Assembly (NCBI GenBank): GCA_963796685.1
Contig: CAWCMR010000025.1
Span: 512,001-576,000 of the forward strand
From: an uncultured delta proteobacterium
GTDB taxonomy: Bacteria; Myxococcota_A; Polyangia; Fen-1088
DNA length: 64,000 nt
Direction of reading: 5' to 3'
This document shows positions 10,301-46,140 of the stretch, one piece after another (the first letter of the stretch is position 1; each line of letters begins with the position of its first letter). A program made the position numbers and the translations under genes. The notes under the pieces were generated by a model. The model searched no databases, was not told the DNA's origin, and was given only the letters and a program-made list of their open reading frames with translations.

Positions 10301-12730
10301 ATGACAAGCACAAAGACGTCGCATCTTTTGGCTGGAAGCACGCCCAGCAAGCAGCCAATGCCGAGGGGCGTACTCTTGACCGTCGTGGCGTTGGGGGCGC
10401 TGGCCGCAGCATCCTGCAGCAGCGCCACGGTCATCGATCAAGGCCAGGGAGGAGTGAGCGGACAAGGCGGCGGCGGAAAAGCCGGCAACACCTCCGGCAA
10501 CTCCGGCGGCGGCGGGGGCGGCGGGCTCACCTTCAACACCGCCGTGCCCGACGCCAACGCCAACGTGGACCGCCCGGGCGGCGGGACCTGCGGAGACGGC
10601 GTCATCGAACGCAACGAGAGCTGCGACGACGGCAACACCGTCAGCGGTGATGGCTGCAGCCGCATTTGCCAAGTCGAGAGCAACTGGAACTGCCCCCAAG
10701 AAGGACAACCCTGCGAGAACCTCGCCAAGTGTGGCAACGGCATCCTGACCTCCGACGAAACCTGCGACGACGGCAACACCGTCAGCGGCGATGGCTGCTC
10801 GGCCGATTGCCAGACCGTCGAAAAAGGCTGGCAATGCCGCGTGCCTGGCAAGCCGTGCACGCCGAGCTGCGGGGACGGGGTGATTCCCGGGACCGAGACC
10901 TGCGACGACGGCAACACGACCTCGGGCGACGGCTGCTCGGCCACCTGCCACCTCGAGCTCGGTTTCAAGTGCGACAAGGCCGGCGCCCCATGCACCAAGA
11001 CCACCTGCGGTGACGGCAAGAAGGAAGGTGCCGAGAGCTGCGACGACGGCAACACCATGCCCTTCGACGGTTGCTCGGAGGATTGCCAGATCGAGCCGGC
11101 GTGCACGGCCGGGTCGGGATGTACCTCCCAGTGTGGCGACGGCATCGTGCTGGGCGAAGAGTGCGACGACGGCAACGTCGGCAATGGCGACGGCTGCTCC
11201 AGCGACTGCAAGAAGGAGCCAGGCTGGACCTGCACCCAGCCGGACATCGGAGACACCATGAAGGTGCCCGTGGTCTACCGGGATTTCAAGTTCAGCGCGG
11301 ACACGCAGCCAAACGGCAACGATTTCGAGCTCGGCGTCAGTGGTTCGTACGATCCCACTACCGGCATCGTCCAGGCGAGCCTGAGCAGCGACAAGCCGGG
11401 CAAGCCGGTGTTGGCTTCGCCCATTCCCACCAGCGCGCACGTCGCCAGCGCGAGTAGCTTCGCGACGTGGTACACCAACGTCTCCGGCACCAATCATACG
11501 ACTGCGTCCAAGCTGACGCTCTGGAACGATGGCAAGGGCAACTACGTGAACCGCTACGGGGCCGACGGCGCGCAGTGGAACACCACCACTCCGGCCAACT
11601 GGTGCGGCACGGTTGGCGACGAGCTCCTCGATGCGAGCGGGAACCCCATTCCGTGCACCTTCAAGTACCAGGCGGGTGTGGATGGCGGCGGCAACGGGGG
11701 CCAGACCGACTGCCAAAAGTTGGAGGCGCAGGGGTACACCATGCTGGACGGCAGTTGTCACGCGGATCAGGGCACGTACAAGGCCTTGTACATCGTGTCC
11801 AAGCAGGATGGCAATCCGCTGTTCTTCCCGGTGGACGGCGACACCTTCACGCCGGCCTCGGAGCTCACGTTCGCCCAGATTCCCCCCTATTACGACGCCG
11901 GGCATACGTGGCCGCACGACATGGACAAGAACGGCAAGGATATCTTGCACAACTTCAGCTTCACCAGCGAGGTCCGCTACTGGTTCCCGTACGACAAGAG
12001 TAAATCGTACACCCTCGATTTCGTCGGTGACGACGACGTCTGGGTATTCATCAACGGCAAGCTGGCCGTGGACTTGGGGGGTGTGCACACGCCCGTCGAC
12101 GGTAGCATCGCGATCGGCGCGAATGGCAGCGGTTCCACCACGGTGACCTCGTTCGACGCCAACGCCAACCCCAATCCCCCGACCAAGTCGACCGCCACCC
12201 TCGGATTGCAGGACGGCAAGGTGTACGAGATTGCGGTCTTCCAGGCCGAGCGCCAGACGCACGGCTCGTCGTACAAGCTGACCCTGAGCGGGTTCAACGC
12301 CGCGCCCACGAGCTGTATGCCGACCTGTGGCGACGGCGTGGTGGTGGCAGACGAGGAATGCGACTGCGGAACCGACCCCAACAATTTCCCCGCCCGGTGC
12401 ACGGGGCCCAACAGCGACGATACCTATGGCGGCTGCACGACCCAGTGCAAGTGGGGCTCGTACTGCGGCGACGGCATCAAGAACGGCCCCGAAGAGTGCG
12501 ACCAGGGCAAGGCCAACGGCACCGACACCAGCCAAGGTGGGTGCACCATCGGGTGCATGACCACCCACTACTGCGGCGACGGCATCGTCGACACCGATCA
12601 CGGCGAGCAATGCGACCTGGGCGACAAGAACGGACAGACCCTGGACAGCCAGCTGAACCCGTCATCCGATTCCACGGCGCAGATCTACTGCGCCAAAGAC
12701 TGCACGATCCCACCCGGTATCGTGTATTGA
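10301..12730 (+). CDS. Lipoprotein with Myxococcus Cys-rich repeats and fibro-slime (PA14-like) domain
   Basis: LAAASC lipobox; repeated CGDG..E.CDDGN..GDGCS..C; HNFSFTSEVRYWF..FVGDDDVWVFINGKLAVDLGGVH. Confidence 0.92.
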   Translation: MTSTKTSHLLAGSTPSKQPMPRGVLLTVVALGALAAASCSSATVIDQGQGGVSGQGGGGKAGNTSGNSGGGGGGGLTFNTAVPDANANVDRPGGGTCGDGVIERNESCDDGNTVSGDGCSRICQVESNWNCPQEGQPCENLAKCGNGILTSDETCDDGNTVSGDGCSADCQTVEKGWQCRVPGKPCTPSCGDGVIPGTETCDDGNTTSGDGCSATCHLELGFKCDKAGAPCTKTTCGDGKKEGAESCDDGNTMPFDGCSEDCQIEPACTAGSGCTSQCGDGIVLGEECDDGNVGNGDGCSSDCKKEPGWTCTQPDIGDTMKVPVVYRDFKFSADTQPNGNDFELGVSGSYDPTTGIVQASLSSDKPGKPVLASPIPTSAHVASASSFATWYTNVSGTNHTTASKLTLWNDGKGNYVNRYGADGAQWNTTTPANWCGTVGDELLDASGNPIPCTFKYQAGVDGGGNGGQTDCQKLEAQGYTMLDGSCHADQGTYKALYIVSKQDGNPLFFPVDGDTFTPASELTFAQIPPYYDAGHTWPHDMDKNGKDILHNFSFTSEVRYWFPYDKSKSYTLDFVGDDDVWVFINGKLAVDLGGVHTPVDGSIAIGANGSGSTTVTSFDANANPNPPTKSTATLGLQDGKVYEIAVFQAERQTHGSSYKLTLSGFNAAPTSCMPTCGDGVVVADEECDCGTDPNNFPARCTGPNSDDTYGGCTTQCKWGSYCGDGIKNGPEECDQGKANGTDTSQGGCTIGCMTTHYCGDGIVDTDHGEQCDLGDKNGQTLDSQLNPSSDSTAQIYCAKDCTIPPGIVY

Positions 12731-12803: not shown

Positions 12804-14000
12804 TTACGGGGCAGAAAGGATGCGCTGCCGCTCGGCGCGGGCGCTCTCGTTGAGCGGCCCGCCCGGGTAACGCGCGATCAGGTCGTCCAGCCTGCGCAAC
12901 GCCAGGTCGTGTTGTCCCTGGCGCTCGGCGTCCAGGGCGGACGTGAAGAGATCGTTTTCCTCCGCCAATCGCGAGATGGGGGCGGGCTGGGCCGGTTTCG
13001 CACTGAGAGCCGGCGCCGCGCCCGGAGCGGGCAGCGACTCGCCGGGTCCAGGGGCTGGCGGGGCAACTGCGGCGGCGGGCGGCGCGAGCGGCGACTCGTT
13101 GGGTTCGAGGATCCGCGAGACCCTGCCGGCTACCCTGACCGCGGTAGGTTTGTGCGTCTCGGATCGAACGGACGCTGACTCTGGACCGGGCACCAACGCA
13201 GGGGCGGCGGTTTCGGCCGCGGATTCCTCCGCCTTGCCCAACTCCAGGCAAGGCGTGGACCAGCTTTCGCCCGGATAGAGCACGACTTGCCTGTCTTCCG
13301 AACGCACCCACACCGCGCCCTCGCTGACGTGCACGCTGGACTGGCTGGTGCTGCCTCGGCACCGCTCCGGCGAGCTTTCCACCGTCACCGTGAACACCGT
13401 TCCGCGCACCTCGACTTCGCTGTCGGGCGTGCTGACCACGAAGCGTTCACCCCGCAGAAGCTTCGTCACGTGCGCATGCAGGCTGCCGTGGAAGAGAGAG
13501 AAGCGTCGCATGGAACCGAGATTGTCGACGCGCAGATTCGCCGAAGAAGAAAGCGTGATGCGGGTTCCGTTGGCGAACCCGAGGATGGCGCTACCATCCT
13601 TGCTGGACCGCACGCTGTCACCCGCGCCGAGGACGCCGAGAACCGGCAAGGGCTGCATGGAGGCCGCACGCACGAGCTGGTTTCCTTGCCCGGTGGTTTG
13701 CTCGACCACCAACTCCAAGCCGGATCCCGGCTTGACTCCGGACAAGCCGCCGCTGCCCATCAGGCGCGGAACCACGAGCGCCAAAGCCGCAGCGGAGAGC
13801 GTCAACGCTGTCCCGATTGCCATGCGCCGACGTCGCGCCTTGGCCGCGATGGCCAGGGCCATGGCGGCGACCACCGCGTCGCGATGCACATCGCCCCGCG
13901 GAGACGGACTCTCCGGCTGCGCTTCCAAGCCTTGTGCGCCCCGCGCTCCGCGCAGCACGCGTGCGGCCAGGCGCGCGTATCGTTCCTCACCCTCAATCAT
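12804..14000 (-). CDS. FecR-domain anti-sigma factor with Pro/Ala linker and C-terminal TPR-like helices
   Basis: One TM after RRRR; FVVSTPDSEVEVRGTVFTV..VSEGAVWV FecR motif; tail LAEENDLF..RYPGGPL. Confidence 0.85.
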   Translation of the reverse strand: MIEGEERYARLAARVLRGARGAQGLEAQPESPSPRGDVHRDAVVAAMALAIAAKARRRRMAIGTALTLSAAALALVVPRLMGSGGLSGVKPGSGLELVVEQTTGQGNQLVRAASMQPLPVLGVLGAGDSVRSSKDGSAILGFANGTRITLSSSANLRVDNLGSMRRFSLFHGSLHAHVTKLLRGERFVVSTPDSEVEVRGTVFTVTVESSPERCRGSTSQSSVHVSEGAVWVRSEDRQVVLYPGESWSTPCLELGKAEESAAETAAPALVPGPESASVRSETHKPTAVRVAGRVSRILEPNESPLAPPAAAVAPPAPGPGESLPAPGAAPALSAKPAQPAPISRLAEENDLFTSALDAERQGQHDLALRRLDDLIARYPGGPLNESARAERQRILSAP

Positions 14001-14629
14001 GACTCGTCCTCCAGTCCGTCGATCCCATTTGCAAGCTCGGGATCGCCTGCAATGCGCTCGTGCAGCTCGCGGCGACCACGCACCAGGCGCGATTGCGCTG
14101 CGGCCACGGTCGCGCCGGTGATGCTTGCCACCTCCTCGAGCGAATAGCCGTGCACGTCATGAAGCAGGAAGGTCCACGCGCGCTCGTGCACCATCTGCGA
14201 AAGATGCTGCATCACGCGTTCGACCATACCGCGCAAGACCGGACGTTGGTGCTCGATTTGAGGCACGTCCTCCGGTGCGAGCTCGCGGGCAAAAATGCTT
14301 CGTTCCAAACCGCGGCGTCGAATGTGCTTGTAGACGGTGTTGGCCGCGATGGTGGAAGCCCAGGTGTCGAGCGAGCACTCCCCGCGGTAGCGATCGAGCG
14401 AGTGCAAGAGCTCGATCATCGCGATCTGAACGAGGTCGTCGAAGTCGCTGTCGGAGGCGCCGAGAAGGCGGTGCACAGCGCGCCCGACCGCCGGGCGCGT
14501 GCGATCGTAGAACGAACCCGCCATGGCGGAATTGCCGCTTCGGACGGCCGCCACCAGCCGTGCATCATCGGGAGGCGCGGCAGAACCCGCCAGGGATTCC
14601 CCACCCTTGACCAACCGCAGCTTTGGCAT
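13997..14629 (-). CDS. ECF RNA polymerase sigma factor
   Basis: Region 2 (DDLVQIAM..YRGECSLDTW) and region 4 (LHDVHGYSLEEVA..QSRLVRGR); ATGA coupling to FecR gene. Confidence 0.92.
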   Translation of the reverse strand: MPKLRLVKGGESLAGSAAPPDDARLVAAVRSGNSAMAGSFYDRTRPAVGRAVHRLLGASDSDFDDLVQIAMIELLHSLDRYRGECSLDTWASTIAANTVYKHIRRRGLERSIFARELAPEDVPQIEHQRPVLRGMVERVMQHLSQMVHERAWTFLLHDVHGYSLEEVASITGATVAAAQSRLVRGRRELHERIAGDPELANGIDGLEDES

Positions 14630-14683
14630 TCTATCGGTCACACCTCCCTTGTACCGCCGCCGGCCCAAAGACAGGCCGGCCCG

Positions 14684-18093: not shown

Positions 18094-19843
18094 TCAGGTT
18101 GGCTCGGGGTCGAGCTCGTCCATGCCGCCCTCGTCATGGTCGAGGAACAGATCGAGCATCTCATCTTCGATGGTGGCGCAAGCCTCCTCGTCGCTGGCGG
18201 TTTCCAGCTTGGTCAGCAAGGCCTGCATCTTGGTTCGATCGCCGGGGGCGAGATTGGCGAGCAGGGCGCGCGCCTTGCGCGCCACCGGGCTTTCGGGGCG
18301 ATCGGTGTCGGGCGTGGTCGCTTTCGGCTTGGCCCCCTTGCCGCGCGCCGCCTGGGCCTTCTTGCCGGCGTCGGCGACCTTCAAGGCCACGGTCTTGGCG
18401 TTGTTCTTTCCGGGCTGCGACACCTCGACGCGAATGATGCCGTTGAGGTCGTAGTTGAACTGAAATCTCACCGGCGAGTGCGCGGGCACGTGTGCGAGGT
18501 CGAAGAAGAACGAGCCGACCCGCGTGTTCTGCGAGCACCGCCGCGTCTCGCCCTGGAACACCTCAACCTCGATGCGCTCTTGGCCGTCGTACATCGTGTA
18601 GCAGCTCCTCGGTGCGCTGGCCGGGTAGCACGGTGTTGCGCTTGAGCACGGGGGCGAAGGTGTCCGGCTCCTCGTCGAGCGTATCCTCGTGACCGACCAC
18701 GCGCACCCCCAGCGTGTGCGCCGCCACGTCGACCAGGATGCGTTCGACAGCAGCGCCGCGCAGCAGCCCGGCCTGGACCGAAGCGCCGAGACCGACCGCC
18801 AGATCGGGATCGACGTCCTCGTGAATTTCGGCCCCGAAGGCCTCTTCGAGCATGGCCCGCACGAGCGGGATGCGGGTCGAGCCCCCGACCAGGCACAGAC
18901 GGCTCACCTGATCGGACTCGACCTTGGCGTCCTCGAGTGCCTTGCGCGAAAGCTCGATGGTGCTCCTGAGCAGGGGCTCGATGAGCGCCTCGAATTCCCG
19001 GCGCGTAATCACCAGCTCCAGGTGAATCGGCTTGCCTGCCACACTCGCCAGGAACTCCTCCTTCACGGCGACCTCGGTGGCGAGCGAGAGCTTGATCTTG
19101 GTGTCCTCGGCCAGCCGGCGCAGCTTGGCCATGGCGCGCGGATCGTCACGTGGATCGAGAGCATGCTGGGCCTTCAGGTGATCGAGAAAGACCTGCAAGA
19201 CCCGATCGTCGAAATCGTCACCGCCGAGCGCGGTGTTGCCCGCGGTGCTGCGCACCTCGCGCACGGGGCCGCTCACGTCGAGCACGGAAACGTCGAAGGT
19301 GCCACCCCCGAGGTCGTAGATGACCACCACCTCGGCATCGGCGGAGAGTCGCGCGTCGCCCACCTGGTCGTAGACCAGGGAGGCGCTGGTCGGCTCGTTG
19401 AGCAGGCGCAAGACGTGCAGCCCGGCCAGATCGCCCGCACGCAAAGTGGCGCGCCGCTGGGCATCGTCGAAATAGGCCGGCACGGTCACGATGACGTCGG
19501 AAATGGTCTGTCCGAGCGTCTTCTCCGCACCGCGTTTGAGGGCCGAGAGAATCTCCGCCGAAACCTCCTCGGGCGCAAGCTCGCGACCGTCGATCTCGTA
19601 GCGATGGCTTTGCCCCATCTTGCGCTTGACCGAGCGAACCGTGCGTTCGGGCTCGGACAGCTCGAGGTTGCGGGCTTCCCGGCCGACGCGAAAGGAACCG
19701 GTCTTGTCGAGATGAACCACCGAGGGGACGATCGCGTCGCCATCGATGGCGATGGGCACGGGGCGTCCGTCCTTGAGATAGGAGATGACCGAATTGGTCG
19801 TTCCCAGATCGATTCCCACGTGAAGATCGGATGGCTGTTTCAT
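18094..19843 (-). CDS. Hsp70-family chaperone, specialised paralog (frameshift near 18601)
   Basis: [44 protein letters not shown]; substrate-binding domain resumes [25 protein letters not shown] in the next frame. Confidence 0.93.
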
Positions 19844-35431: not shown

Positions 35432-37096
35432 TCACTGCTCGAAGGGACCAAGATCCACGGGCGCGCGGCGAACGACGCCAGCGCGGTCGATGGGGACCTC
35501 GGGCAGCAGGTTGCCGAAATCGAGCCACGGCGTGGTGGCGGTAGGGGCGAAGGCCGCGGGGTCGTGGCCAACCGAGGTGGGAAAGGCCGCGAACCAGGTC
35601 GGGTCGAGGCTGGGGACGACACGCTCGCTGGCGGTGGGACTGTAGGCCGGCGAGCTGTCGTCAGAGCCGAAATACCCCGAGACCCAGGCGTTGTGCTCGA
35701 AGGTGGTGGCCTGCACCGTGGTGGCGTCGGTGGCCAGAAGCTGGCCGTTGGCATTGGCGGTGACGGTGGTGCCGCTGATGGTGAGCGCGACGACGACGTT
35801 GTTCCTGAACTGGTTGCCGGTCGAGTCGTTGGTGACGCCGATGGCCTGTCGGTCGTTCACCTGGGTAATGAAGAGATTGTGCGCCACCAGGTTGTTGGAC
35901 GAGCCGAGCTTGGGGTTGTCTGTCTCTTGCCAGAAGCTCGCTCCGTGCTTCGCCGGCAAGGCGAAGATGTTGTTCTTGATGGTGCTGTTTCTGACCGAGG
36001 TGAAGTTGGGCCCTTGCGCCAGGCTGTGGTGGAAGAAATTGCTGTCGATCAACATGAAGTCGGAGGCACCGCGGCCCCCGGTCGGGCCGCTGCCCGCGAC
36101 CGCATCGCACTCGGGATCGTCGTAGGCCACGCCGTCGTCGGAGCAAGTGGATAGGGGATCCGCGTTGATCTGGAAGTCGGACGAGGCGGTGTTGTAGGTC
36201 TCGTTGTAGCGGGCGATGTTCCAGTCGCTGCCGTTGCTCAGGTAAATGCCGTGTCCGTCGCCGCTGCCCGAGTCGTGGCCGATGCAGCTTTCGATCACCA
36301 GCCAATCGGACTCACCGGTGAAGAAAGGATCCTTGTTTTGCCCGTGGCCGATGTCGTTCAGGACAGCCGTGCCTTTCTGGTGCTGGTTCGCGGGATAGCC
36401 CGAGCCGACGGCGCGCACGCCATAGTCGCCGCCGATCAGCTCGAACCCATCCACCGCAACGTAGTCGGAGGCTTCCAGGTTGATGCAGGTCTTGCGACCG
36501 CTGCTGCAACAATTGATGGTCACCGCGGGTGAGCCGTCGGCCTTGCGCTCACCGACGAGCACGATGGGGTTGTCGTAACTGCCGCCGTGATCCGAGTCGA
36601 GCTCGTAACACCCGGAATAGCTGCCAGCGGTGAAGACGACCATGGTGCCGGGAACAACCGCTGCCAAGGCTGTGGCCACGCTTGTGGGGCTCGCACGCGA
36701 GCTGCCGTTGCCGGTGCCGTTCGGACTGACGTACACGGTGCTCGACGGCTGCCAGGCGCAATCCGTGTAGTACCGATTGAATTTCTCGGAGAAGCCGAAG
36801 TATTGCCCGCCTCGCGCGACAGCGGGCTCCGTCCCCGAGGCCGTGCAGCCGCCGTCGATACCGCTTCCGCCGCCCGTGCCAACGCCACCCGTGCCCTGCA
36901 GGCCCCCTAGCCCGCCGCTGCCTGCGCCACCCGCGCTCGGCTGCCCGCCGGCACCGCCGACGCCGCGATCCGGACCCGGGCCATCTTGGCCGGCCGCACC
37001 GTCGCGCACGCCCGTGCTCGAGCTGCAGCTTACCGACAGCAGCAGGCCAAGGATGAGACGCACCGTCCACGTCAGCTTGGCGTTCATGACCAGCAT
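35432..37096 (-). CDS. Lipoprotein with right-handed beta-helix (pectin-lyase-like) domain
   Basis: LSVSC lipobox, Gly-rich linker, VYVSPNG, HGIYLSNGSD, Asn-ladder repeats, DLGPFE terminus. Confidence 0.82.
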   Translation of the reverse strand: MLVMNAKLTWTVRLILGLLLSVSCSSSTGVRDGAAGQDGPGPDRGVGGAGGQPSAGGAGSGGLGGLQGTGGVGTGGGSGIDGGCTASGTEPAVARGGQYFGFSEKFNRYYTDCAWQPSSTVYVSPNGTGNGSSRASPTSVATALAAVVPGTMVVFTAGSYSGCYELDSDHGGSYDNPIVLVGERKADGSPAVTINCCSSGRKTCINLEASDYVAVDGFELIGGDYGVRAVGSGYPANQHQKGTAVLNDIGHGQNKDPFFTGESDWLVIESCIGHDSGSGDGHGIYLSNGSDWNIARYNETYNTASSDFQINADPLSTCSDDGVAYDDPECDAVAGSGPTGGRGASDFMLIDSNFFHHSLAQGPNFTSVRNSTIKNNIFALPAKHGASFWQETDNPKLGSSNNLVAHNLFITQVNDRQAIGVTNDSTGNQFRNNVVVALTISGTTVTANANGQLLATDATTVQATTFEHNAWVSGYFGSDDSSPAYSPTASERVVPSLDPTWFAAFPTSVGHDPAAFAPTATTPWLDFGNLLPEVPIDRAGVVRRAPVDLGPFEQ

Positions 37097-37250
37097 GGTA
37101 ACGCGCTTTCCGCAGTTAGGGGATCGCTGCGGTGACGGTTCTTTGTAGGCGAATGTCGGGCGATGCGGGTACTGGCGTTGCTGACAACCCGTGCCCGCAC
37201 GCAGCCTCCGTCGGACGGAGGTCCAGGTTTCTCGACACTATGTCGATTTT

Positions 37251-37279
37251 TGACCGGGAACGACCGGACACGCGGTCTA
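37251..37279 (+). promoter_or_regulatory. Putative ECF promoter (autoregulatory)
   Basis: TGACC-N18-GGTCTA just upstream of the ECF gene; same motif and spacing at 41359-41387. Confidence 0.6.
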
Positions 37280-37303
37280 TTCCAATGAGGACTCGCCGAC
37301 GCT

Positions 37304-37927
37304 ATGCCCACGCTTCCCTCTCACGTTCCCCTGTCCCTGGTCGTGGATCGGGATTGCCGCGCCGCCAGCGACGGTGACGTCGCACGGGCGCTGAGCGCCG
37401 GGGAAGGCTGGGCCGCGGTGGAGACGTGGCGACGGTTCGCCCCCATGGTGTTGACGCTGGCAAGGCGCGCCCTGGGCTCTCAGTCCGAGGCAGAGGATGT
37501 CGGGCAAGAGGTCTTCTCCCGCGTGTACCGCAAAGTGAAAACGCTGCGCGAGCCCGACAGCTTCCGCAACTTCGTCTACGCCAGTGCCCTTCGCGTGCTT
37601 CAGACCGAGCTCCACCGCAAGAAGATGCGCGCGTGGCTTTCCTTCGAGCAGCCTGATTTGCTCGATGGCCAAGGGCGCGAAACGCTGGACGTGGAGTCAC
37701 GCGATCTGTTGCGAAGGTTCTATGATCTGCTCGAACGGCTGGCGCCGCGCGACCGGATCGTGTTCGTCCTGAGGCGCGTCGAGTCGATGACCGTGGAAGA
37801 GATCGCCGCCGCCATGGGGACTTCGGAATCCACGGTGAAGCGATCGCTGGCGCGCGCTTCGAACCGCCTGTCGCGCTGGATGGAGGAAGATACACGCTCG
37901 GCCGACGGGGGGAGATGGCAACCATGA
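37304..37927 (+). CDS. ECF RNA polymerase sigma factor
   Basis: AEDVGQEVF, LREPDSFRNFV, VLRRVESMTVEEIA..STVKRSL. Confidence 0.93.
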   Translation: MPTLPSHVPLSLVVDRDCRAASDGDVARALSAGEGWAAVETWRRFAPMVLTLARRALGSQSEAEDVGQEVFSRVYRKVKTLREPDSFRNFVYASALRVLQTELHRKKMRAWLSFEQPDLLDGQGRETLDVESRDLLRRFYDLLERLAPRDRIVFVLRRVESMTVEEIAAAMGTSESTVKRSLARASNRLSRWMEEDTRSADGGRWQP

Positions 37928-39213
37928 GGACGACGACCAGTGAAACCAAGGACTGCCCGGCACTCATCGAGATGATCGACCTTTGCCGCAACAAACTGGG
38001 ACCGCCAACCGCGGCGGAGCTCGACCAGGGGCTCGACGGGTTCCTCGCCCGCATTGCGCCGACCGAGCGTCGCCCGCGGAGACTCGTTCGCTGGTCGCTG
38101 GCGGGTATTGCCGTCGCGCTGTGCACCTTGGTTGCTGTGCAGGTCGCTTCGGTTTTTCGGAGGCGCTCGCTTTCTCGTGAGGAACCAGCGCTTACTTACC
38201 GGGTCGATGGCGGCAGTGTCCTTCAGGGCGGATATCTTCGTGAATCCGGCCACGCCGGGATGAGCGTGCTGTTCAACGAGGGAAGCAGACTGACGCTCAC
38301 GCCGGGAGCGCGCAGCCAGCTCCGCGTGGTCGACCGCGACTCGGCCCACGTGAGCATCGAGCGCGGCAAGGCGTCCTTCCAGGTCGTGCACAAAAACAAT
38401 CGACGCTGGTTGGTCGACGCCGGCCCGTTCTTGGTAACGGTCACCGGAACCGTCTTCACGGTGTCGTGGGATCCGCTGAGCGAGGAGCTCGATCTCCGGC
38501 TGCTCCAAGGCAAGGTCGTAGTGAGTGGTCCGGTCTCGTCTGGTGAAATCGCGTTACGGGCTGGCCAGCGCCTGCTGGCCAATCTTACCAAGGCGGAGAT
38601 GGTCATCACCGACGAGCTGCCGGAGCAAACCAGCAGCGCACCTCCCGGCGCTGCCAGGGTGCCAGTGGTGCCCCCGCCCGGGCTACAGCCGTCGCCGCCC
38701 GAGCCATCCCCAACACCGGCGACCTCTGCGGTCGCCAGTCTGGTGCACGACCATCAATGGAGCCGCAAGTTGGCGCGGGGCGAGTGGGACCGTATCCTCC
38801 AGGACGCCAGGCGCATCGGGGTTGAGACGACGCTGGCCCAAGCCTCCAGCGAAGACCTCTTCGCTCTCGCCAACGCGGCTCGCTACCGACACCTCCTCGA
38901 ACTGGCTCGCGCCGCGCTGCTTGCCGAACGGCGACGCTTTCCCGGGTCGCAGCGGGCGCTGGAAGCGATCTACCTGCTTGGTCGCGTGGAGGAATCGCGG
39001 GAAGCCGGAACCGCCGAGGCAATCGCATGGTACGATGAGTATCTTGTCCGCGCGCCGACCGGCCCGCTCGTGGGAGAAGCTTTGGGACGCAAGATGACCC
39101 TCACCGACAAGCTCGAAGGACCAGCCCGGGCGCGCTCCCTGGCCGAAGAGTATCTTCGCCGCTTCCCCAAGGGGAACTATGCTGGATCGGCGCGCGAGCT
39201 CCTCGCACCGTGA
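37924..39213 (+). CDS. FecR-domain anti-sigma factor with C-terminal TPR-like region
   Basis: One TM; WLVDAGPFLVTVTGTVFTVSWDP; Pro linker; RFPGS..YLLGR..YLRRFPKG; ATGA coupling to the sigma gene. Confidence 0.87.
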   Translation: MRTTTSETKDCPALIEMIDLCRNKLGPPTAAELDQGLDGFLARIAPTERRPRRLVRWSLAGIAVALCTLVAVQVASVFRRRSLSREEPALTYRVDGGSVLQGGYLRESGHAGMSVLFNEGSRLTLTPGARSQLRVVDRDSAHVSIERGKASFQVVHKNNRRWLVDAGPFLVTVTGTVFTVSWDPLSEELDLRLLQGKVVVSGPVSSGEIALRAGQRLLANLTKAEMVITDELPEQTSSAPPGAARVPVVPPPGLQPSPPEPSPTPATSAVASLVHDHQWSRKLARGEWDRILQDARRIGVETTLAQASSEDLFALANAARYRHLLELARAALLAERRRFPGSQRALEAIYLLGRVEESREAGTAEAIAWYDEYLVRAPTGPLVGEALGRKMTLTDKLEGPARARSLAEEYLRRFPKGNYAGSARELLAP

Positions 39214-39223
39214 CCAAGGCCCA

Positions 39224-40270
39224 TTGAACCGCCTGCGCCTTGGGCTCAGTCTTGCGACGCTCCTGGGATGGACCGTCTGGACCACGCCAGCGCGGGCGGC
39301 CACGGTAGCCATTCTGTGGCCACCTGCCCCTTGCGCCGATGTGACCCAGGCATTGACTCTCCTGCGTGGAGAGTTGTTGTCGGTGGGCCTTGAGGTCACG
39401 GAGTCCGATCAGGCAGCCGCCCGCGCTCGCGGGGGAGCCGACTCGGTATCGTGGCTGGAAGCCTTTGCAGCACAAGGTGCGGTCGCCGTGGTCGAGACGA
39501 TTGGAACCGGTGCGCTGGAGGGGCTTGACGTGTGGGTGGTGAAGGCGCGCCCACAACGATTCGAGGTCACTCGGGTTGCCATCGAACCCGATGCTCCAAG
39601 GCAGCCGGAAATGCTGGCCCTTCGCGCGGTCGAAGCCTTGCGCGCGGGCCTTCTCCAGAGCGATTGGGCAGCACGAAAGCGACACCAAGAACCCATCGCC
39701 AAGCCACCGACGGTCGCCGCGCCCACGGGCGCGGGACAGCAGGCCGCGAGTCATGACGAGCGCGTTGGCATCGAGGTTGGAGCCGCTGCAATCATGAGCC
39801 TGGACGGACTCGGCCCTGCGGTGTTGTCGACCGCGCGCGTGGGCTGGGCGGTTCGCCCCTGGCTCGTGATGCAAGCTTCGGTGGCGGGAATAGGGAGCTG
39901 GTCCACAGTGACGACCGCGGCGGGCGACGCGCGGGTCGCCCAGCAATACGCCGTCATCGGGGGCATCTGTCGTCTTCGCTCGACCGAGCGGCTGTGGCCT
40001 TTTCTTGGCCTCGCGGCCGGGGCACTGCGCACGTCCGTCGAAGGGCAAACCGGCTGGAGCACAGGAGGCGGGACCCCGGAGCGATGGTCGGGCGTGGTCG
40101 ACGTGAGCTTGGGAGCGGGGATTCGCCTCTACGGCCGATTGTACGTGAGCTTCGCTGCACACGTCCAGGTGGCCGAGCCCTATGTGGCCGTTCACATTGC
40201 CGACACGGTCGGGGCCACCTCCGGGCGCCCCAATCTGCTGTTGACCCTTACCGTGGGTGCTTGGTTATGA
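39224..40270 (+). CDS. Secreted protein with probable C-terminal beta-barrel
   Basis: Signal peptide (PARAA), LALRAVEALRA helix, alternating beta strands, ends LTLTVGAWL. Confidence 0.72.
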   Translation: MNRLRLGLSLATLLGWTVWTTPARAATVAILWPPAPCADVTQALTLLRGELLSVGLEVTESDQAAARARGGADSVSWLEAFAAQGAVAVVETIGTGALEGLDVWVVKARPQRFEVTRVAIEPDAPRQPEMLALRAVEALRAGLLQSDWAARKRHQEPIAKPPTVAAPTGAGQQAASHDERVGIEVGAAAIMSLDGLGPAVLSTARVGWAVRPWLVMQASVAGIGSWSTVTTAAGDARVAQQYAVIGGICRLRSTERLWPFLGLAAGALRTSVEGQTGWSTGGGTPERWSGVVDVSLGAGIRLYGRLYVSFAAHVQVAEPYVAVHIADTVGATSGRPNLLLTLTVGAWL

Positions 40271-41342
40271 AGTCGGGAACGCCCGCCGGGCTTCTGTGCG
40301 TTCTTTGCATCCTGGCCAACACCACCGCATGTTGGCGCACCGACGTTTATCTGGTGACGGCCGACAGCGGCATGGGTGCTGGCGGTGCTGCGGATGGTGG
40401 AACGACCGGCGTGGTGCCGAGCGCCGGTTGCGGAAAGGCATCGACCATCGCTTTTGCGGCGGTTCCGAATCAGGACCCGAGTGCGGCGCCAGGGTCGGGG
40501 CACACGCTGGGACATGGTGTCGGCGGCTACGTCACCCTTCAGAGCAGCGGCAAGACAAGGACCTTCACCATGAGGCTTCCCGACGACTACGACCCGAACC
40601 ACCCTTACTGGTTGAGCTTCACCTTTCACCCCGCGGGCGGCAACACCTACGGAATCGACAACGGCGGAAACAATGGGTACGTCATGGCCTACTACGGACT
40701 CCAAAATCTGTCGAACAATGGTGCGTTCTTCGTGGCACCCGACGGATTGAACGGCGGGTGGGCAAACTCCAACGGGGAAGACCTGAAATTCGTCGACGAT
40801 ATGGTCGAGCTGATCGAGGACAACTACTGCATCGACACCACGCACCTCTTCGCGCAAGGGTTCGCCTGGGGTGGCGGCATGACCTACGAAATCGCATGCG
40901 CCCGCGCGAAGGTCTTCCGCGGGGTCGCGATCTACGAAGGCGCAGTCTTCAGCGGGTGTGACAATGGCAATGACCCGATCGCGTACTGGCAGATGGTCGG
41001 GCTTACCGACAGCACGTGCACCATCGACCTGGCAAGGCCGATGCGCGACCAGTTTGCCAAGAACAACGGCTGCACGCTCCCCGCCACCGAGCCACCCGAG
41101 CCACCTCAGCCTCCACCCTACTTGAACCCCGGAGGGCACGCTGTGCACGGACTACGCCGGATGTTCCAGCGGCCACCCCCTGCGCTGGTGCGTGCATCAG
41201 TCAGGTCTCGGCAACGCCATCGTCGACGGGACCTCGGATTCTCTACAACTCGTGCGCGACGGCTCCCAAGACCTGCTCGACCTCGTGTCCTTGCACCTGG
41301 GTTCCGGAAGACGTGTGGTCCTGGATGACGAAGAGCTTCTAG
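40267..41342 (+). CDS. CE1 feruloyl-esterase / PHB-depolymerase-like lipoprotein with substituted catalytic residues (frameshifts near 41140 and 41240)
   Basis: LPDDYDPNHPY, FVAPDGLNGGW, DLKFVDDM, GFAWGGGM, FAKNNGC, YAGCSSGHPLRWC; ATGA coupling to the upstream gene. Confidence 0.8.
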
Positions 41343-41358
41343 AGCACCGAACGATTGT

Positions 41359-41387
41359 TGAACCGAAATGCCAGGGGGCCTGGTCTA
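41359..41387 (+). promoter_or_regulatory. Putative ECF promoter for the GH29 gene
   Basis: TGAAC-N18-GGTCTA, matching 37251-37279. Confidence 0.6.
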
Positions 41388-41467
41388 CAAGGGTGGCCCC
41401 TCGGCGTTCTGTTGGCCCGACCAACCAGACCGGGAGGCCGCAGTGTAGTCGCGCATCAAGGAGAATC

Positions 41468-43885
41468 ATGACACGGCAGACAGTAGTCTCTCTGGCTCTT
41501 GGCCTCATGTGCGGCTCGATGGCCTGCAGTGGGAGCACACCCTCCGGTGTGGGTGCAGGTGGTGCCGATGGTGGTGGAACGCACGCCAGCGGGGGCACAG
41601 CGACAGGCGGGAATGCTGCGGGAGGCTCGGCGATCTTGTCGTCGGGTGGCCAAACATCCGGTTCGGGCGGGACCGGCCAAGGACAAGGCGGCGACCAAGG
41701 AGGCAGGGGGGGCACCGCGAGCGGCGGCAGTAGCGATGCGGGTGGCTCCACGACCTCGTCGTCCGGTGGACAAACATCCGGTTCTGGCGGAACCAGTCAA
41801 GGACAAGGCGGTGGGCAAGGAGGCAGGGGGGGCAGCGCCAGCGGTGGCATCGCTGCATCTGGCGGCCGCAGCGCCTCGGGTGGGGCCAGCGGTGCTGCCG
41901 CTGGCGGTACCACCGGCGGTGCTGCTGGCGGAGCTGGGGGGTTGACTGGGACAGGGGGCATACAGGGCTCGGGCGGAACCATCGCGGGCACCGACATCTG
42001 GAACCTGCCGAAGTTCCCCGTGGCCACTGGCCCCTATACCGCCGACTGGAAGGCGCTGGGTCTGGCCTATTCCACGCCCGAGTGGTGGCGTGACGCCAAG
42101 CTCGGCGCCTGGGCACACTGGGACCCACAATCCATGCCCGAGCAAGGCGACTGGTACGCCTACCACATGTATCAAGAGGGCTCCGCGGACTTCAACTACA
42201 ACGTCAGTCACTTCGGTGATCCGTCCGTGTATGGCTACAAGGATATCTGCAAGAACTGGGTCATCGACCTATGGGATCCCAACGCCTTGATGGATTTGTA
42301 TGTGCAAATGGGTGCCAAGTTCTTCATGGCCATGGGCGCACACCATGACAACTTCGACAACTTCGATTCGACCTACCAGCCCTGGAACTCGGTCCGAGTC
42401 GGCGTGCAGAAGGACATGGTCGGCACGTGGGCACCGATCGCGCGGCAAAAGGGGCTACGTTTCGGTATTGGCTTTCACAACACGCCGGCTCGAACCTGGG
42501 GGCAGTGGATGCCGATTCGCTACACCAGCGACGCGAAGGGCCCCTACGATGCGCTGCTAACCACCGCGGACGGCAAAGGCAAATGGTGGGAAGGTATGAA
42601 TCCCGCGGATCTCTACGGGCCCAAGCACAGCACCGACTGCTCGAACAATGCGTGCAACAATTCGGCCTATGGCACCCAGTTCATGTATCGAGTCGACGAC
42701 GCCATCAACAAGTATCATCCCGACGTCGTCTACTTCGACGACCACGCCGGCGATTCCCAGGTGGACCTGGGCGTCCACATGGGACTGGGTTCCATCGCGA
42801 CGACGATCCTGGCGAATTACTACAACAAGTCCCTGACCTGGAATCAGGGCAAGATGGACGTCGTCATGAACATGAAGGGCGTGGGCGGCCAATACGACAG
42901 CTTCCAGAACAGCGCGTCCCTGGAACCCTATGCCGAGCGCGCCCTGGTCAGGAGCACCGAAGCGGCGACCGAAGCACAGATCAGTGCCTATCCTTTCCAG
43001 ACCGAGCTCCACATCCAGGGGGGCAACTGGCACTACATGACCGGAGCGGGATACACGAGTGCATCGTCTCTGGTCACGACTCTCATGCAGAACGTCTCGC
43101 GAAACGGAAGCTTGCTGCTCAACCTCACCCAACACGGCCGGGGGAATCTCGATGCCCAGTGTACGAAGAACGCCCAAGACATCGGCGCCTGGCTCAAGGT
43201 CAACGGCGAGGCCGTGTACGCGTCCCGACCATTCGAAGTGTGGGGCGATAGCACGGTCATCTACACGCGCGCCAATGGCAACGTCTATGCGACGCTTCTC
43301 GGTTGGAACGGTGGCGCGGTCACCCTGTCGGCGCTCAAGTCGGGCGGGGCAACCCTGGGAACCGTATCCAAAGTCGAGCTACTCGGCTCCACGGTGGCGA
43401 TGACATTCTCGCAAAGCGGTCAGGGACTGACGGTGACGCCCGCGGGATCGGTGGCGGCGCTCCCGGGGATCTCCGATTCGCAGCTTGCTTCGAAGATGCG
43501 CGTGCTTCGCATCACCCACGACAAGGGCTGGATCAACGACGACGATCCGGGCTGCGCGTTTCCCGGATGGCTTCGCAAGTCGAACCTCGGCACCGGCGAC
43601 TACAACGACGATCTGACCACCAGCACGACCACCGGGGACACGTGGACCGCCTCATTCACCGGGACGGACGTCGCCATCTACGCTCCGAAGGAATCCGGAG
43701 ATGGAAAGATCGAGATCCAGATTGACGGCCAGACCAGCGCGACGGTGGATTTTTCCACCACGGGCGCCCGCCAGCCCCAGCAACGCGTGTCCGAAGTGGG
43801 CAGCCTGGCCGACGGACAGCACACCATCAGCATCATCAATCGCGGCCCTGGCCCTGTCGCAGTGGATGCCATCGTCGTCAACTAA
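41468..43885 (+). CDS. GH29 alpha-L-fucosidase-family lipoprotein with Gly/Ser linker and C-terminal beta-sandwich
   Basis: AAGGAG RBS, SMAC lipobox, PEWWRDAKLGAWAHW, HHDNF, PDVVYFD, VSRNGSLLLN, WLKVNGEAVY. Confidence 0.92.
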   Translation: MTRQTVVSLALGLMCGSMACSGSTPSGVGAGGADGGGTHASGGTATGGNAAGGSAILSSGGQTSGSGGTGQGQGGDQGGRGGTASGGSSDAGGSTTSSSGGQTSGSGGTSQGQGGGQGGRGGSASGGIAASGGRSASGGASGAAAGGTTGGAAGGAGGLTGTGGIQGSGGTIAGTDIWNLPKFPVATGPYTADWKALGLAYSTPEWWRDAKLGAWAHWDPQSMPEQGDWYAYHMYQEGSADFNYNVSHFGDPSVYGYKDICKNWVIDLWDPNALMDLYVQMGAKFFMAMGAHHDNFDNFDSTYQPWNSVRVGVQKDMVGTWAPIARQKGLRFGIGFHNTPARTWGQWMPIRYTSDAKGPYDALLTTADGKGKWWEGMNPADLYGPKHSTDCSNNACNNSAYGTQFMYRVDDAINKYHPDVVYFDDHAGDSQVDLGVHMGLGSIATTILANYYNKSLTWNQGKMDVVMNMKGVGGQYDSFQNSASLEPYAERALVRSTEAATEAQISAYPFQTELHIQGGNWHYMTGAGYTSASSLVTTLMQNVSRNGSLLLNLTQHGRGNLDAQCTKNAQDIGAWLKVNGEAVYASRPFEVWGDSTVIYTRANGNVYATLLGWNGGAVTLSALKSGGATLGTVSKVELLGSTVAMTFSQSGQGLTVTPAGSVAALPGISDSQLASKMRVLRITHDKGWINDDDPGCAFPGWLRKSNLGTGDYNDDLTTSTTTGDTWTASFTGTDVAIYAPKESGDGKIEIQIDGQTSATVDFSTTGARQPQQRVSEVGSLADGQHTISIINRGPGPVAVDAIVVN

Positions 43886-44160: not shown

Positions 44161-46140
44161 ATGCGTTCGTCGACTCGCCTTGTAGTTGTCCTTGTTTCGC
44201 TGGCCCTTGTCGCCTGCAGCTCGAACAGCAAGACCTCTGACGGCGGGACTTCAGGCGGTGGAAACGGAGGTACCCAGGTGCCCGGCACCGGTACTGGTGG
44301 CGGGACGGCTTCCGGGGGCGCGATTGGCTCCGGCGGACAAATCATGAGCGCGGACGCGGGGAGTGAATCCGGTACGGCCGACGTCCCGGGAATCGGCAAG
44401 GATGGACCCGGCGGCAGCGACGGTGGTCGCGACTCCGCAAGCGATGGTCCGGCCAACGACGGCGGAGCCAACGACGCCGCCATGGACGGTGGCGGCGTGA
44501 CCCTGGGGCCACGCTGCACGAGCTGCACGCCGCGATGCTGGGACAGCACTCTGGTTCGAGAGGCGCCGCAAGAAACTTGCACGGACCCGTCGCCGCTCGC
44601 GGGCATCGCCTCGCATGTCGATCTGGTCCTGACGATGCCGGACTCGACCAAGCGATACTTGGTCGATTCTCCGTTCGATTCCGGCAGCCAGTTCGATTGG
44701 ACCTGGTCCTTTGACAGCGCCAAGGGGCGGACCTTCAGCCAGGGCCTTCATTGCGGCAAGGTGGAAATGTCGCGCGTCCCTACCGGGGACGACACCGCTT
44801 CCCCGACATCGCAGGCGCGGCTCACGGTGACCATCGATGGCACCGCCTATTCGTCGGCGAACGGGACAGCGTCGGTCAGCCTGCACATGAAGGAACCCCT
44901 GGGTGCGACCATCAACGATCCCGCTACCGGACCGCTCTTCGATATCGAAGCGTCCGGAACCCTGGCCGCGACCACCGGAGCCAGCATCGGCCTCCAGGGT
45001 CGCATGCGCAACATGCACGCAGGTGTGGGCGAGATGGGTCTTGCCCGCCGGGAAGGCTCCATTGCAGGGCAGGGCTCGTTGGCCCCGGGCGCGGCGATCA
45101 GCGGGGGGACCCTGGTTCTGGCGTCCGTCCTGGTGAACAGCTCGCCAGCCGCGCTGCTGCTCGACAGTGCGCTGGGTGCCGACAAGACCATTCCATTGCC
45201 CGAGGTGATGGGGCTTGTCGCCTTTGCCGATGGCACGTTGTTGGCGGGTGGAGTCGACAGCGTCCACATCGCCGCCTATGACGCCTCCGGAACGCAGAAA
45301 TGGACCACGCCGCCCATCGTTCGAACGAGCCTCACGCGCGCGGGCCTGCTGGCCCGCAAGGACGGCTCTGCCTGCTTCTCGGCCGCGGGACCAACCTCGG
45401 CCAGCACGACCTATCCATCGTTGCTGGTCTGCACCGACGACGCCGGGGTGCCCCAGTGGCAGAGCTGCTATCTATCCCGTGGTTTCGCCAGAAGGTCCCA
45501 CCGAGCTGTCCGACGGAACCTTGGTGGTCGCGGATGGGCGCTCGCCCGAAGTTCTCGGCGTAGCACCGGATGGCAAGCAGCGTTTCGAGTCGCGGCCTGT
45601 ACGACGGATCCGACCAATCGGGATCCTCCCTACTACAAGGCGGTCGGTGTGGCCCGGAACGCCGACGGAGGCGGCGTCGTTCAGGTGGGCGACGATGTCA
45701 TCGCGTTCTCGGCCGACGGCGAGCTTCGTTGGCGGTCGCTCGTCCCGAGAGGAAACGGCGAAGCCCTGGTGGCGGCGGACGGAACCATCTACGCCATGAC
45801 CGGTTCACCCGCCACCGTGGTGGCCATGGACGACCAGGGACGTGTGCTGTGGACACGCCTTGTCGGACACGATGGCCAACTGGTTGGCCTTGCCGCCGAT
45901 GGATCCCTCTATGTGTTCAGCTCGGGCTGGAGCGCGAGCAACGCCCTATCGGCCATCCGAGGTGACGGTAGCATCAAGTGGTCCGTGCAGACCGAGGCGC
46001 CATCGTGGATCCTGTCTCCCGATGGCGATCTCTACGGTTGGACCGCGAATTCTGTCGATCGCGTGGGGGGTGGCTCGCCGATGGCCGACTCGCCCTGGCC
46101 TGCACCGCGCGGTAGCGGCCGCCGAGCTGGCACGCGCTAG
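44161..46140 (+). CDS. Lipoprotein with PQQ-like beta-propeller
   Basis: LVAC lipobox; DG.L.W repeats (ADGELRW, DGTIY, DGSIKW), DSPWP; segment about 45460-45600 reads better in another frame (SDGTLVVAD..DGKQRF). Confidence 0.75.
   Translation: MRSSTRLVVVLVSLALVACSSNSKTSDGGTSGGGNGGTQVPGTGTGGGTASGGAIGSGGQIMSADAGSESGTADVPGIGKDGPGGSDGGRDSASDGPANDGGANDAAMDGGGVTLGPRCTSCTPRCWDSTLVREAPQETCTDPSPLAGIASHVDLVLTMPDSTKRYLVDSPFDSGSQFDWTWSFDSAKGRTFSQGLHCGKVEMSRVPTGDDTASPTSQARLTVTIDGTAYSSANGTASVSLHMKEPLGATINDPATGPLFDIEASGTLAATTGASIGLQGRMRNMHAGVGEMGLARREGSIAGQGSLAPGAAISGGTLVLASVLVNSSPAALLLDSALGADKTIPLPEVMGLVAFADGTLLAGGVDSVHIAAYDASGTQKWTTPPIVRTSLTRAGLLARKDGSACFSAAGPTSASTTYPSLLVCTDDAGVPQWQSCYLSRGFARRSHRAVRRNLGGRGWALARSSRRSTGWQAAFRVAACTTDPTNRDPPYYKAVGVARNADGGGVVQVGDDVIAFSADGELRWRSLVPRGNGEALVAADGTIYAMTGSPATVVAMDDQGRVLWTRLVGHDGQLVGLAADGSLYVFSSGWSASNALSAIRGDGSIKWSVQTEAPSWILSPDGDLYGWTANSVDRVGGGSPMADSPWPAPRGSGRRAGTR

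Follow-up and report, generated by a model that had tools for sequence, protein, structure and literature searches.

We analysed a 64-kb stretch of DNA, called the window throughout, that belongs to a 2.1-Mb contig of an uncultured delta proteobacterium of the Fen-1088 lineage (Polyangia). The assembly comprises 7.3 Mb in 26 contigs and is 88.6% complete with 6.5% contamination; the GC content of the window is about 65%. Between positions 37250 and 43885, the plus strand of the window carries five genes, encoding a sigma factor of the extracytoplasmic function (ECF) type, a FecR-type anti-sigma factor with a tetratricopeptide repeat (TPR) domain, a protein without a Pfam domain (g3), an esterase-like lipoprotein (g4) and a glycoside hydrolase family 29 (GH29) lipoprotein (Table 1). 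The first four genes probably form a switch that senses plant cell-wall material without a TonB-dependent receptor and turns on the neighbouring fucosidase gene.

Table 1. Genes and promoter-like motifs at the locus (window coordinates).
Feature	Position	Strand	Basis or remark
Promoter-like motif of the sigma operon, TTGACC-N18-GGTCTA	37250..37279	+	ends 25 nucleotides before the sigma ATG
ECF sigma factor, 207 residues	37304..37927	+	Pfam, NCBIfam
FecR+TPR anti-sigma factor, 432 residues	37915..39213 (alternative ATG 37924)	+	Pfam, NCBIfam
g3, barrel protein, 363 residues	39179..40270 (alternative TTG start 39224)	+	structure model; no Pfam/NCBIfam match
g4, lipoprotein pseudo-esterase of the feruloyl-esterase / polyhydroxybutyrate (PHB)-depolymerase kind	40267..41342	+	homology, three-frame reading
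Promoter-like motif of GH29, TTGAACC-N17-GGTCTA (cgattgtTGAACC-N18-GGTCTA)	41358..41387	+	ends 80 nucleotides before the GH29 ATG
GH29 alpha-L-fucosidase lipoprotein	41468..43885	+	PF01120
Beta-helix-like lipoprotein, divergent		35432..37096	-	Beta_helix 19.2 bits, below cut-off

The original prediction for this locus, made from the DNA alone, had described a four-gene unit held together by two ATGA overlaps and a gap of about 10 bp, followed by a GH29 lipoprotein gene with its own ribosome-binding site, and we found both as described. The sigma TGA and the ATG at 37924 share bases as ATGA, the TTG start of g3 lies 10 nucleotides past the FecR stop codon (with an alternative ATG 35 nucleotides upstream), and g4 starts at 40267 in a second ATGA overlap with g3. 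The sigma factor matches PF04542 (Sigma70_r2, 1.3e-11), PF08281 (r4_2, 1.7e-16) and NCBIfam TIGR02937 (2.6e-25), and its three close paralogues all lie within paralogous cassettes of the same genome. The fucosidase gene, preceded by AAGGAG 5 nucleotides upstream of its ATG, matches PF01120 over profile positions 10-345 of 345 (225 bits, 2.3e-66). Its segment VVYFDDHAG sits where the solved GH29 structure 5k9h has VWFDGA (read by eye), placing an Asp at the position of the conserved nucleophile, and we presume that this GH29 is the regulated enzyme.

The anti-sigma factor consists of a short cytoplasmic N terminus, one predicted transmembrane segment (about residues 58-85, read off the sequence by eye and with no prediction tool), a periplasmic FecR domain (PF04773, residues 116-201, 30.7 bits, cut-off 24), a Pro-rich linker and a C-terminal, YbgF-like TPR domain (TPR_16, 0.0019; TIGR02795, 0.0024). 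Across 21 aligned homologues, conservation covers the FecR and TPR parts, and the linker varies. A Gly-Thr pair at residues 178-179, within VTGTVFTV of the FecR domain, is invariant in all 21. A conserved Gly-Thr is the point of self-cleavage in canonical anti-sigma factors of cell-surface signalling, and residues 178-179 may correspond to it.

The product of g4 has a lipobox with Cys22, the motif CWRTDVYLVT and a Gly-rich linker. It matches NCBIfam NF050058, of the PHB-depolymerase/esterase kind, below the cut-off (2.4e-11), and shares 54% identity with an intact paralogue from contig C9 of the same genome; an orthologue from another locus (L007) matches the solved feruloyl esterase 8jh8 with an E-value of 4e-44 over residues 94-321. 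The nucleophile motif reads GFSFGGG in 8jh8, GFSWGAG in the C9 paralogue and GFAWGGG in g4. The alignment of GFSFGGG with GFAWGGG therefore indicates that the nucleophilic Ser is replaced by Ala in g4. The segment of the catalytic His, which we assigned in the sequence by its position after '...SGG' in the 8jh8 alignment, reads HQSGLGN in g4 and SQSDHGP in the C9 paralogue, and the Leu is found in 5/5 complete orthologues. The esterase-fold lipoprotein with substituted catalytic residues proposed in the original prediction is borne out by these Ser-to-Ala and His-to-Leu replacements.

A profile search with g3 retrieved 43 related loci, mostly in metagenome-assembled genomes titled Polyangia, Polyangiaceae, Myxococcales, Sorangium or deltaproteobacterium, with one distant locus from a bin labelled Gemmatimonadaceae. 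The cassette order is kept among them. Genes for a sigma factor and a FecR protein lie directly upstream of g3 in all 40 loci with sufficient upstream DNA (L015, L027 and L038 are cut), and the fourth lipoprotein gene starts on the g3 stop codon, as ATGA or GTGA, in 40 of the 41 assessable loci, L026 being the exception and L014 and L034 ending too early to be counted. The genome itself holds four such paralogous cassettes. Two of them lie about 7 kb apart (C25:144206-148181 and C25:153555-161016), one with an esterase-type dead sensor (GLATGGG) and the other, cassette 3, with a dead sensor of the GH29 plus F5/8-type-C kind whose C terminus is apparently frameshifted. A distant three-gene cassette on the minus strand of contig C8 (C8:120096-123135) comprises genes for a sigma factor, a FecR-TPR protein and a barrel protein with ...GASF as its C terminus; behind it lie ftsK, split into two open reading frames (ORFs), and a lolA-like gene. 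Among 401 evenly sampled Myxococcota genomes, our own included, a match at E <= 1e-10 turned up in only 6, so that the family is limited to part of the phylum.

The products of the fourth genes are all lipoproteins and share a motif that starts from the lipobox Cys, C-x-R-[AT]-[DN]-[VL]-[YFD]-[AP]-[IV]-T, ahead of a linker rich in Gly and Ser. Of 39 sequences tabulated, 37 have the Arg at +2 and 32 the Thr at +9, and the motif is retained in all domain types. A strict regular expression for it gave a single site in the six-frame translation of our genome, because the motif varies within that genome. Behind this constant N terminus, we distinguished four domain types: the feruloyl-esterase-like type of the window (type 1, 8 external loci), a second esterase type of about 310 residues (type 2, 26 external loci), a GH141 type with a beta-helix (6 external loci) and the GH29 plus F5/8-type-C type of our own cassette 3.

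The original prediction had proposed a survey of fourth genes for inactive carbohydrate-active enzymes (CAZymes). By alignment, all of the fourth-gene types surveyed have lost catalytic residues. In type 1, Ala occupies the nucleophile position in all six sequences that reach the site, and HQSGL replaces the His segment. Among 26 sequences of type 2 (24 external and two of our own), the nucleophile position holds Leu in 18, Ala in 3, Gly in 2 and Ser in 3, and in the three with Ser the His of active relatives is replaced by Gln. In the GH29-type sensor, HFTA stands in place of the WFDG of 5k9h (1/1), a motif whose Asp we take to be the nucleophile of GH29. A review places a conserved Asp of this family at the end of strand beta-4. 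For GH141, a review gives D523 as putative nucleophile and D564 as acid/base of BT1002, which correspond to chain positions 528 and 569 in our alignment. On these assignments, Asp is replaced by Gly at the D523 position in 5/5 complete GH141 sensors and the D564 position is kept, and both Asp residues are present in each of the two GH141 target genes nearby, whose identity to the sensors is 60-72%. The ratio of nonsynonymous to synonymous substitution rates (dN/dS) of type 1 genes is 0.11-0.24 in 15/15 pairs, which therefore indicates purifying selection on working proteins rather than wrecks.

On a maximum-likelihood tree of 38 g3 proteins, from which nine loci were left out as partial or with a fourth gene not yet typed (L010, L014, L023, L026, L027, L034, L038, L046 and L047), the sensor type requires 4 changes, against a mean of 11.3 after shuffling. 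The feruloyl-esterase and GH141 types fall together in one clade with support of 100/100, and the GH29-type cassette is sister to the esterase-type cassette that lies about 7 kb away in the same genome. These four changes, together with the kept N-terminal motif, therefore suggest that sensor domains have been exchanged on a conserved chassis. At one locus (L029), the esterase-type sensor and the GH29 are 65% and 81% identical to those of the window, and the sigma, FecR and barrel proteins 58%, 53% and 44%; a sensor-target pair may have been transferred onto another chassis there, or the rates may be unequal.

The presumed link between the switch and its target is a promoter-like motif with a -35-like element, TTGACC, and a -10-like element, GGTCTA. 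The same motif had been claimed in front of both the sigma gene and GH29; both copies are present, and both are also kept in orthologous loci. A conserved block, cgatttcTGACC-N19-GGTCTAT, lies upstream of sigma in L005-L009 and L012. A near-identical second copy was found in five of the eight orthologous loci scanned (L006, L007, L008, L009 and L012), and a variant with one mismatch precedes the divergent GH29 of L029; L005 and L027 gave no second copy within the locus DNA scanned. The genes behind the second copies are a GH29 orthologue in L012, a GH29-like plus F5/8C lipoprotein in L008 and a GH78 rhamnosidase lipoprotein in L006; in L007 the gene lies beyond the end of the locus, and in L009 no clear gene follows. 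Orthologues of the window GH29, at 75-81% identity, adjoin the cassette in L012 (downstream) and L029 (divergent). In relatives of about 90% identity (three sequencing runs), the spacer between the esterase and GH29 genes is unalignable except for an island at 41352-41392, which differs at 4 of 41 nucleotides and contains the motif. In the whole 7.3-Mb genome, TTGA[N]?CC-N17-20-GGTCT[AG] has 14 matches on both strands; GGTCTA is the ending of only three, among them both copies listed in Table 1.

Other cassette types carry a motif variant of their own, gaaaaaTGAACCgaTCC-N13-gCGACTGC, and the genes behind its second copies encode lipoprotein esterases that retain both Ser and His. The motif-bearing esterases of L017, L021 and L031 belong to the same subfamily as the dead sensor, and second copies in L011 and L018 precede GH141 genes. 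In our own cassette 3, the motif precedes GH10 xylanase-like and SGNH esterase-like genes (read by eye). Two of the genes behind the motif of the window type, both on the minus strand (L006:9404-12292 and L008:965-3007), share a near-identical promoter block, the signal peptide MTRSR.SQKL.VAALAILAASCSSNN and the start of the linker, followed by a GH78 rhamnosidase domain in one case and GH29-like plus F5/8C domains in the other. This pair suggests that enzyme domains, too, may be exchanged behind a fixed regulatory and export head.

No gene for a TonB-dependent transducer is linked to the cassettes. The absence of a TonB receptor from the neighbourhood, already remarked in the original prediction, extends to all 47 window ORFs scanned, none of which matched Plug or a TonB-receptor family. 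Plug matches number 16 in the genome; all of them are farther than 20 kb from each of the four cassettes, and over 400 kb separate the cassette of the window from the nearest. STN matches only once in the genome, on another contig. TonB itself could still have a role.

The outer-membrane partner encoded at the locus is a candidate for taking the transducer's place. The g3 family has at least 396 members among 8000 candidates scored; g3 has no match in Pfam or NCBIfam, and all 120 homologues listed lack a Pfam domain and any name other than 'hypothetical protein', two of them being titled Polyangia bacterium. An AlphaFold model built on 16 homologues (mean predicted local distance difference test score, pLDDT, 72.5) shows a signal peptide, an alpha/beta domain at about residues 42-170, a disordered Pro-rich linker and a beta-barrel at about 196-362. 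In Foldseek, the barrel matched OmpA with an E-value of 6.6e-9; target TM-scores were about 0.63-0.74 for the OmpA transmembrane domain, NspA, Ail and OmpX, with 0.70-0.74 for the first two; the predicted fold of the C-terminal half is an OmpA/OmpX/NspA-like eight-stranded barrel. The description of g3 as barrel-like was thus right for this half; the N-terminal one is an alpha/beta domain in the model. There is no match to PF00691, the peptidoglycan-binding domain of OmpA, and the extra domain is N-terminal, unlike in the OmpA family proper. Modelled alone (pLDDT 86.9), the N-terminal domain best matches generic alpha/beta folds, such as LacI-type half-domains and anticodon-binding domains, with Z up to 8.9; the matches to the TolB N-domain (Z 7.6-7.8) and to PelC (Foldseek E 9.5e-4) are both middling. 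STN has no Pfam match in this domain and is not among the fold matches listed, which are middling and not evidence of absence. In the protein atlas, the clusters for g3 are unnamed and from Myxococcota only, and the nearest named ones (OMP_b-brl, TolB_N and LpoB/CsgG, with scores no higher than 0.90) are leads only. When the periplasmic part of FecR (85-432), g3 (41-363) and the first 39 residues of the mature lipoprotein were co-folded, the ipSAE values were 0.00 and 0.01 in runs without controls, and we used them neither for nor against a contact.

Comparison among the loci gives good support to a putative modular ECF sensing system without a TonB receptor. By analogy with FecR, the cytoplasmic N terminus of the anti-sigma factor would bind the sigma factor and the protein would span the inner membrane once. 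The g3 protein would occupy the outer membrane with its barrel and the periplasm with its alpha/beta domain, and the lipoprotein would be tethered beside it, its N-terminal motif docking to the barrel protein or to the TPR domain. If the dead enzyme retains its ligand pocket, it could serve as the receptor for a plant cell-wall fragment; a fragment held in the dead active site would alter the docking contact and pass a signal via the barrel, the TPR domain or both to the anti-sigma factor, which would release the sigma factor. The released sigma factor would then transcribe its own operon and the adjacent GH29 gene from the common TTGA(N)CC-N18/19-GGTCTA promoter. We lean, by a modest measure, towards the dead-enzyme lipoprotein being the receptor of a conserved, modular envelope-signalling unit of Polyangia that induces GH29. 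A more specific version seems to us plausible but a little short of an even chance: the sigma factor, the FecR-TPR protein and the barrel would be a plug-and-play chassis for swappable dead-CAZyme receptor lipoproteins that dock through the nine-residue motif after the Cys. The same version, held with the same reserve, has the receptor often being a paralogue of the induced enzyme, its bound and unturned substrate acting as the signal, and the receptors having been swapped repeatedly.

Several observations weigh against this interpretation. The case for the unit is one of sequence and comparison. The catalytic residues were assigned by alignment to one solved esterase, to the BT1002 positions of a review and to a GH29 motif. 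The C8 cassette has no gene for a fourth lipoprotein and neither has L026; the core can therefore exist without a pseudo-enzyme. Not all motif-bearing downstream genes encode CAZymes: the product is a TPR/PMT_2 protein in L013 and belongs to the DUF1592 family in L023, with a DUF3237 protein in L014 as a further exception. The loose promoter pattern gives two unrelated matches in the 64-kb window and 100 raw matches in 522 kb of loci; since such a pattern gives chance matches, our argument rests on extended conservation and position and not on the pattern count. The targets of type 1 cassettes (GH29 and GH78) are not paralogues of the esterase-like sensor, and the description of the sensor as a dead paralogue of its target therefore holds only for GH141 and part of the type 2 cassettes. 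Finally, g4 of the window carries two frameshifts, and if these are real this copy of the module has no intact sensor.

These frameshifts are two single extra bases (+1), near 41141 and at 41239/41240: g4 reads from 40267 to about 41140, continues in the next frame to about 41238 and in a third frame to the TAG at 41340-41342. The gene could be a real pseudogene with two true 1-bp insertions, in a module copy that is degenerating or running without a sensor. Such a history would agree with the position of both shifts inside 100 bp, with neither being within a long homopolymer, and with the contigs of all relatives examined (about 88-95% identical, four public runs), which have exactly one base fewer at 41141 and again at 41239/41240. 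Decay would be harder to reconcile with the frames themselves. After each shift, the next frame stays colinear with the paralogue and the orthologues to their common C terminus, reading ...CTDYAGCSSGHPLRWCVHQSGLGNAIVDGTSD after the first, with Leu where the C9 paralogue has SDHGP, and ending in ...CPCTWVPEDVWSWMTKSF after the second, as in the orthologues; up to the first shift, dN/dS against the orthologues is 0.12-0.18. The assembly also splits other normally whole genes, namely Hsp70 in the window, FtsK on C8, the FecR gene of cassette 4 and the tail of the GH29-type sensor. Because the orthologues are intact and other genes are split in the same assembly, we consider an assembly error more likely than decay, and a real pseudogene quite unlikely. 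Plain decay of the esterase, which the original prediction named as a refutation, is not general, the orthologues being intact with the low dN/dS given above; the window copy, however, has two frameshifts of uncertain origin, which the original prediction did not report.

The absence of a fourth gene in C8, within the same genome, and in L026 also bears on the role of the lipoprotein. It could be an output of the system, a non-catalytic glycan-binding accessory co-transcribed with the regulators, like the surface glycan-binding proteins of polysaccharide utilisation loci, with the FecR/TPR protein or the barrel alone doing the sensing; that the fourth protein signals is, after all, our own inference. 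An accessory with no tie to the regulators, however, would not need the strict 4-nucleotide coupling to the barrel gene seen in 40/41 loci, the motif after the Cys has been kept through at least four changes of domain type, and the true enzyme targets have different N termini and long linkers without the motif. We regard an accessory output as unlikely. The combination of a lipoprotein with a flexible linker, an eight-stranded barrel and an inner-membrane partner recalls RcsF/OmpA/IgaA, and the module could instead monitor the envelope, with the dead enzyme as sentinel cargo for lipoprotein export, all presumed targets being lipoproteins with long linkers. In the GH141 and several esterase cassettes, however, the dead enzyme follows the family of the enzyme encoded nearby as target, which a sentinel need not do, and a sentinel would have no need of repeated replacement by other CAZyme folds; nor would one expect the loss of catalytic residues only, with the rest 60-72% identical to an active paralogue. 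This reading appears to us very unlikely. The original interpretation of the locus is partly supported: conserved gene order, inactive fourth gene, conserved motif and lack of a linked receptor stand, whereas sigma action on the motif, glycan binding by the pseudo-enzyme and its contacts with the barrel protein or FecR are proposals. The broken frame of g4 has to be added, and the divergent beta-helix lipoprotein falls outside the unit.

That lipoprotein gene is present, with a weak family match (Table 1), and we tried it as a member of the unit. It gave no tblastn match in the 47 loci searched and has no motif on its strand; because it is neither conserved beside the cassette nor preceded by the motif, we do not count it as part of the unit. 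Directly after GH29, at 44161-46140 on the plus strand, lies a lipoprotein gene without the promoter motif, whose product has a BamB/PQQ-like beta-propeller region (PF13360, 1.4e-7) and a Gly-rich linker. The window holds a second, unrelated sigma/FecR pair at 12804-14668 on the minus strand (Sigma70_r2, 1.7e-14; FecR, 4.1e-12), which has no barrel protein or pseudo-enzyme gene attached and is divergent to a gene at 10301-12730 (plus strand) for an 809-residue protein with four DUF4215 repeats and a PA14 domain. The Hsp70-family gene at 18094-19843 on the minus strand consists of two overlapping ORFs covering profile positions 102-414 and 426-527, as after a frameshift.

To our knowledge, what is understood of FecR-type anti-sigma factors comes almost entirely from systems with TonB-dependent transducers. 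For the signal input of the many FecR proteins without a transducer, the module offers a concrete candidate, a barrel with a lipoprotein pseudo-enzyme. If our reading is true, it would be a clear bacterial case of pseudo-enzymes repeatedly recruited as ligand receptors, and each genome would hold parallel sensors for different plant cell-wall decorations. Sensor type and promoter motif together would predict which CAZyme genes uncultured soil Polyangia induce for each plant cell-wall component, and a chassis with exchangeable receptors is a possible design for glycan biosensors.

FecI-FecR-FecA signalling normally uses a TonB-dependent transducer, with a Bacteroidota variant in which an ECF sigma factor and an anti-sigma factor are combined with a SusC-like protein. 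The system described here resembles it in the ECF sigma factor, the single-pass FecR anti-sigma factor, the outer-membrane partner encoded at the locus and the presumed control of genes for nutrient acquisition. It differs in having no TonB-dependent transducer, Plug or STN domain nearby, and in its predicted eight-stranded barrel partner, an anti-sigma factor that ends in TPRs and a separate lipoprotein pseudo-enzyme. In the SigI-RsgI systems of Clostridium thermocellum, carbohydrate-active modules sense outside the cell and switch on an alternative sigma factor for CAZyme genes, and, as here, one genome holds several paralogous systems with different sensor modules. The RsgI sensor is fused to the anti-sigma factor of a Gram-positive bacterium, whereas the putative sensor here is encoded by a separate gene and the anti-sigma factor has only FecR and TPR parts; the setting is diderm, with an outer-membrane lipoprotein presumably coupled to a barrel, and the sigma factor is of the ECF type and not SigI.

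RcsF, which works with OmpA/OmpC and IgaA, is an outer-membrane lipoprotein with a flexible N-terminal linker that signals to an inner-membrane regulator. The likeness, a lipoprotein working together with a small beta-barrel, is one of architecture and not of sequence or fold comparison; the output of RcsF is a phosphorelay, whereas here it would be the release of an ECF sigma factor, and RcsF is no enzyme homologue. In BlaR1/MecR1, the sensor domain is a crippled relative of the induced enzyme class and the substrate is the signal. They differ in that sensor and protease domain are parts of one membrane protein, that the hosts are Gram-positive and that a beta-lactam is the ligand.

The closest published group is ECF267 (Casas-Pastor et al. 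2021, PMC7826278). It is described there from Sorangium and Chondromyces (Polyangia), with an anti-sigma factor at +1 that resembles FecR and is fused to TPRs, and with neither a FecA-like nor another TonB-dependent receptor; the target promoter motifs are called 'not conserved', and nearby kinases are suggested as regulators. Our unit matches that description in its first two genes, the absence of a receptor and the Polyangia host, a likeness of features and not a placement of the sigma factor by the group's hidden Markov model or a tree. The passages on this group describe no conserved third or fourth gene, whereas here a barrel at +2 and a pseudo-enzyme lipoprotein at +3 are conserved, and promoter motifs are conserved within subclades. 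In full-text literature other than subscription journals, we found no account of the four-gene unit or of a pseudo-enzyme lipoprotein with a FecR anti-sigma factor, and ECF267 alone was related. Signalling by ECF sigma and FecR is already known, and what the locus would add to it is a new sensor apparatus, composed of a barrel and a pseudo-enzyme lipoprotein.

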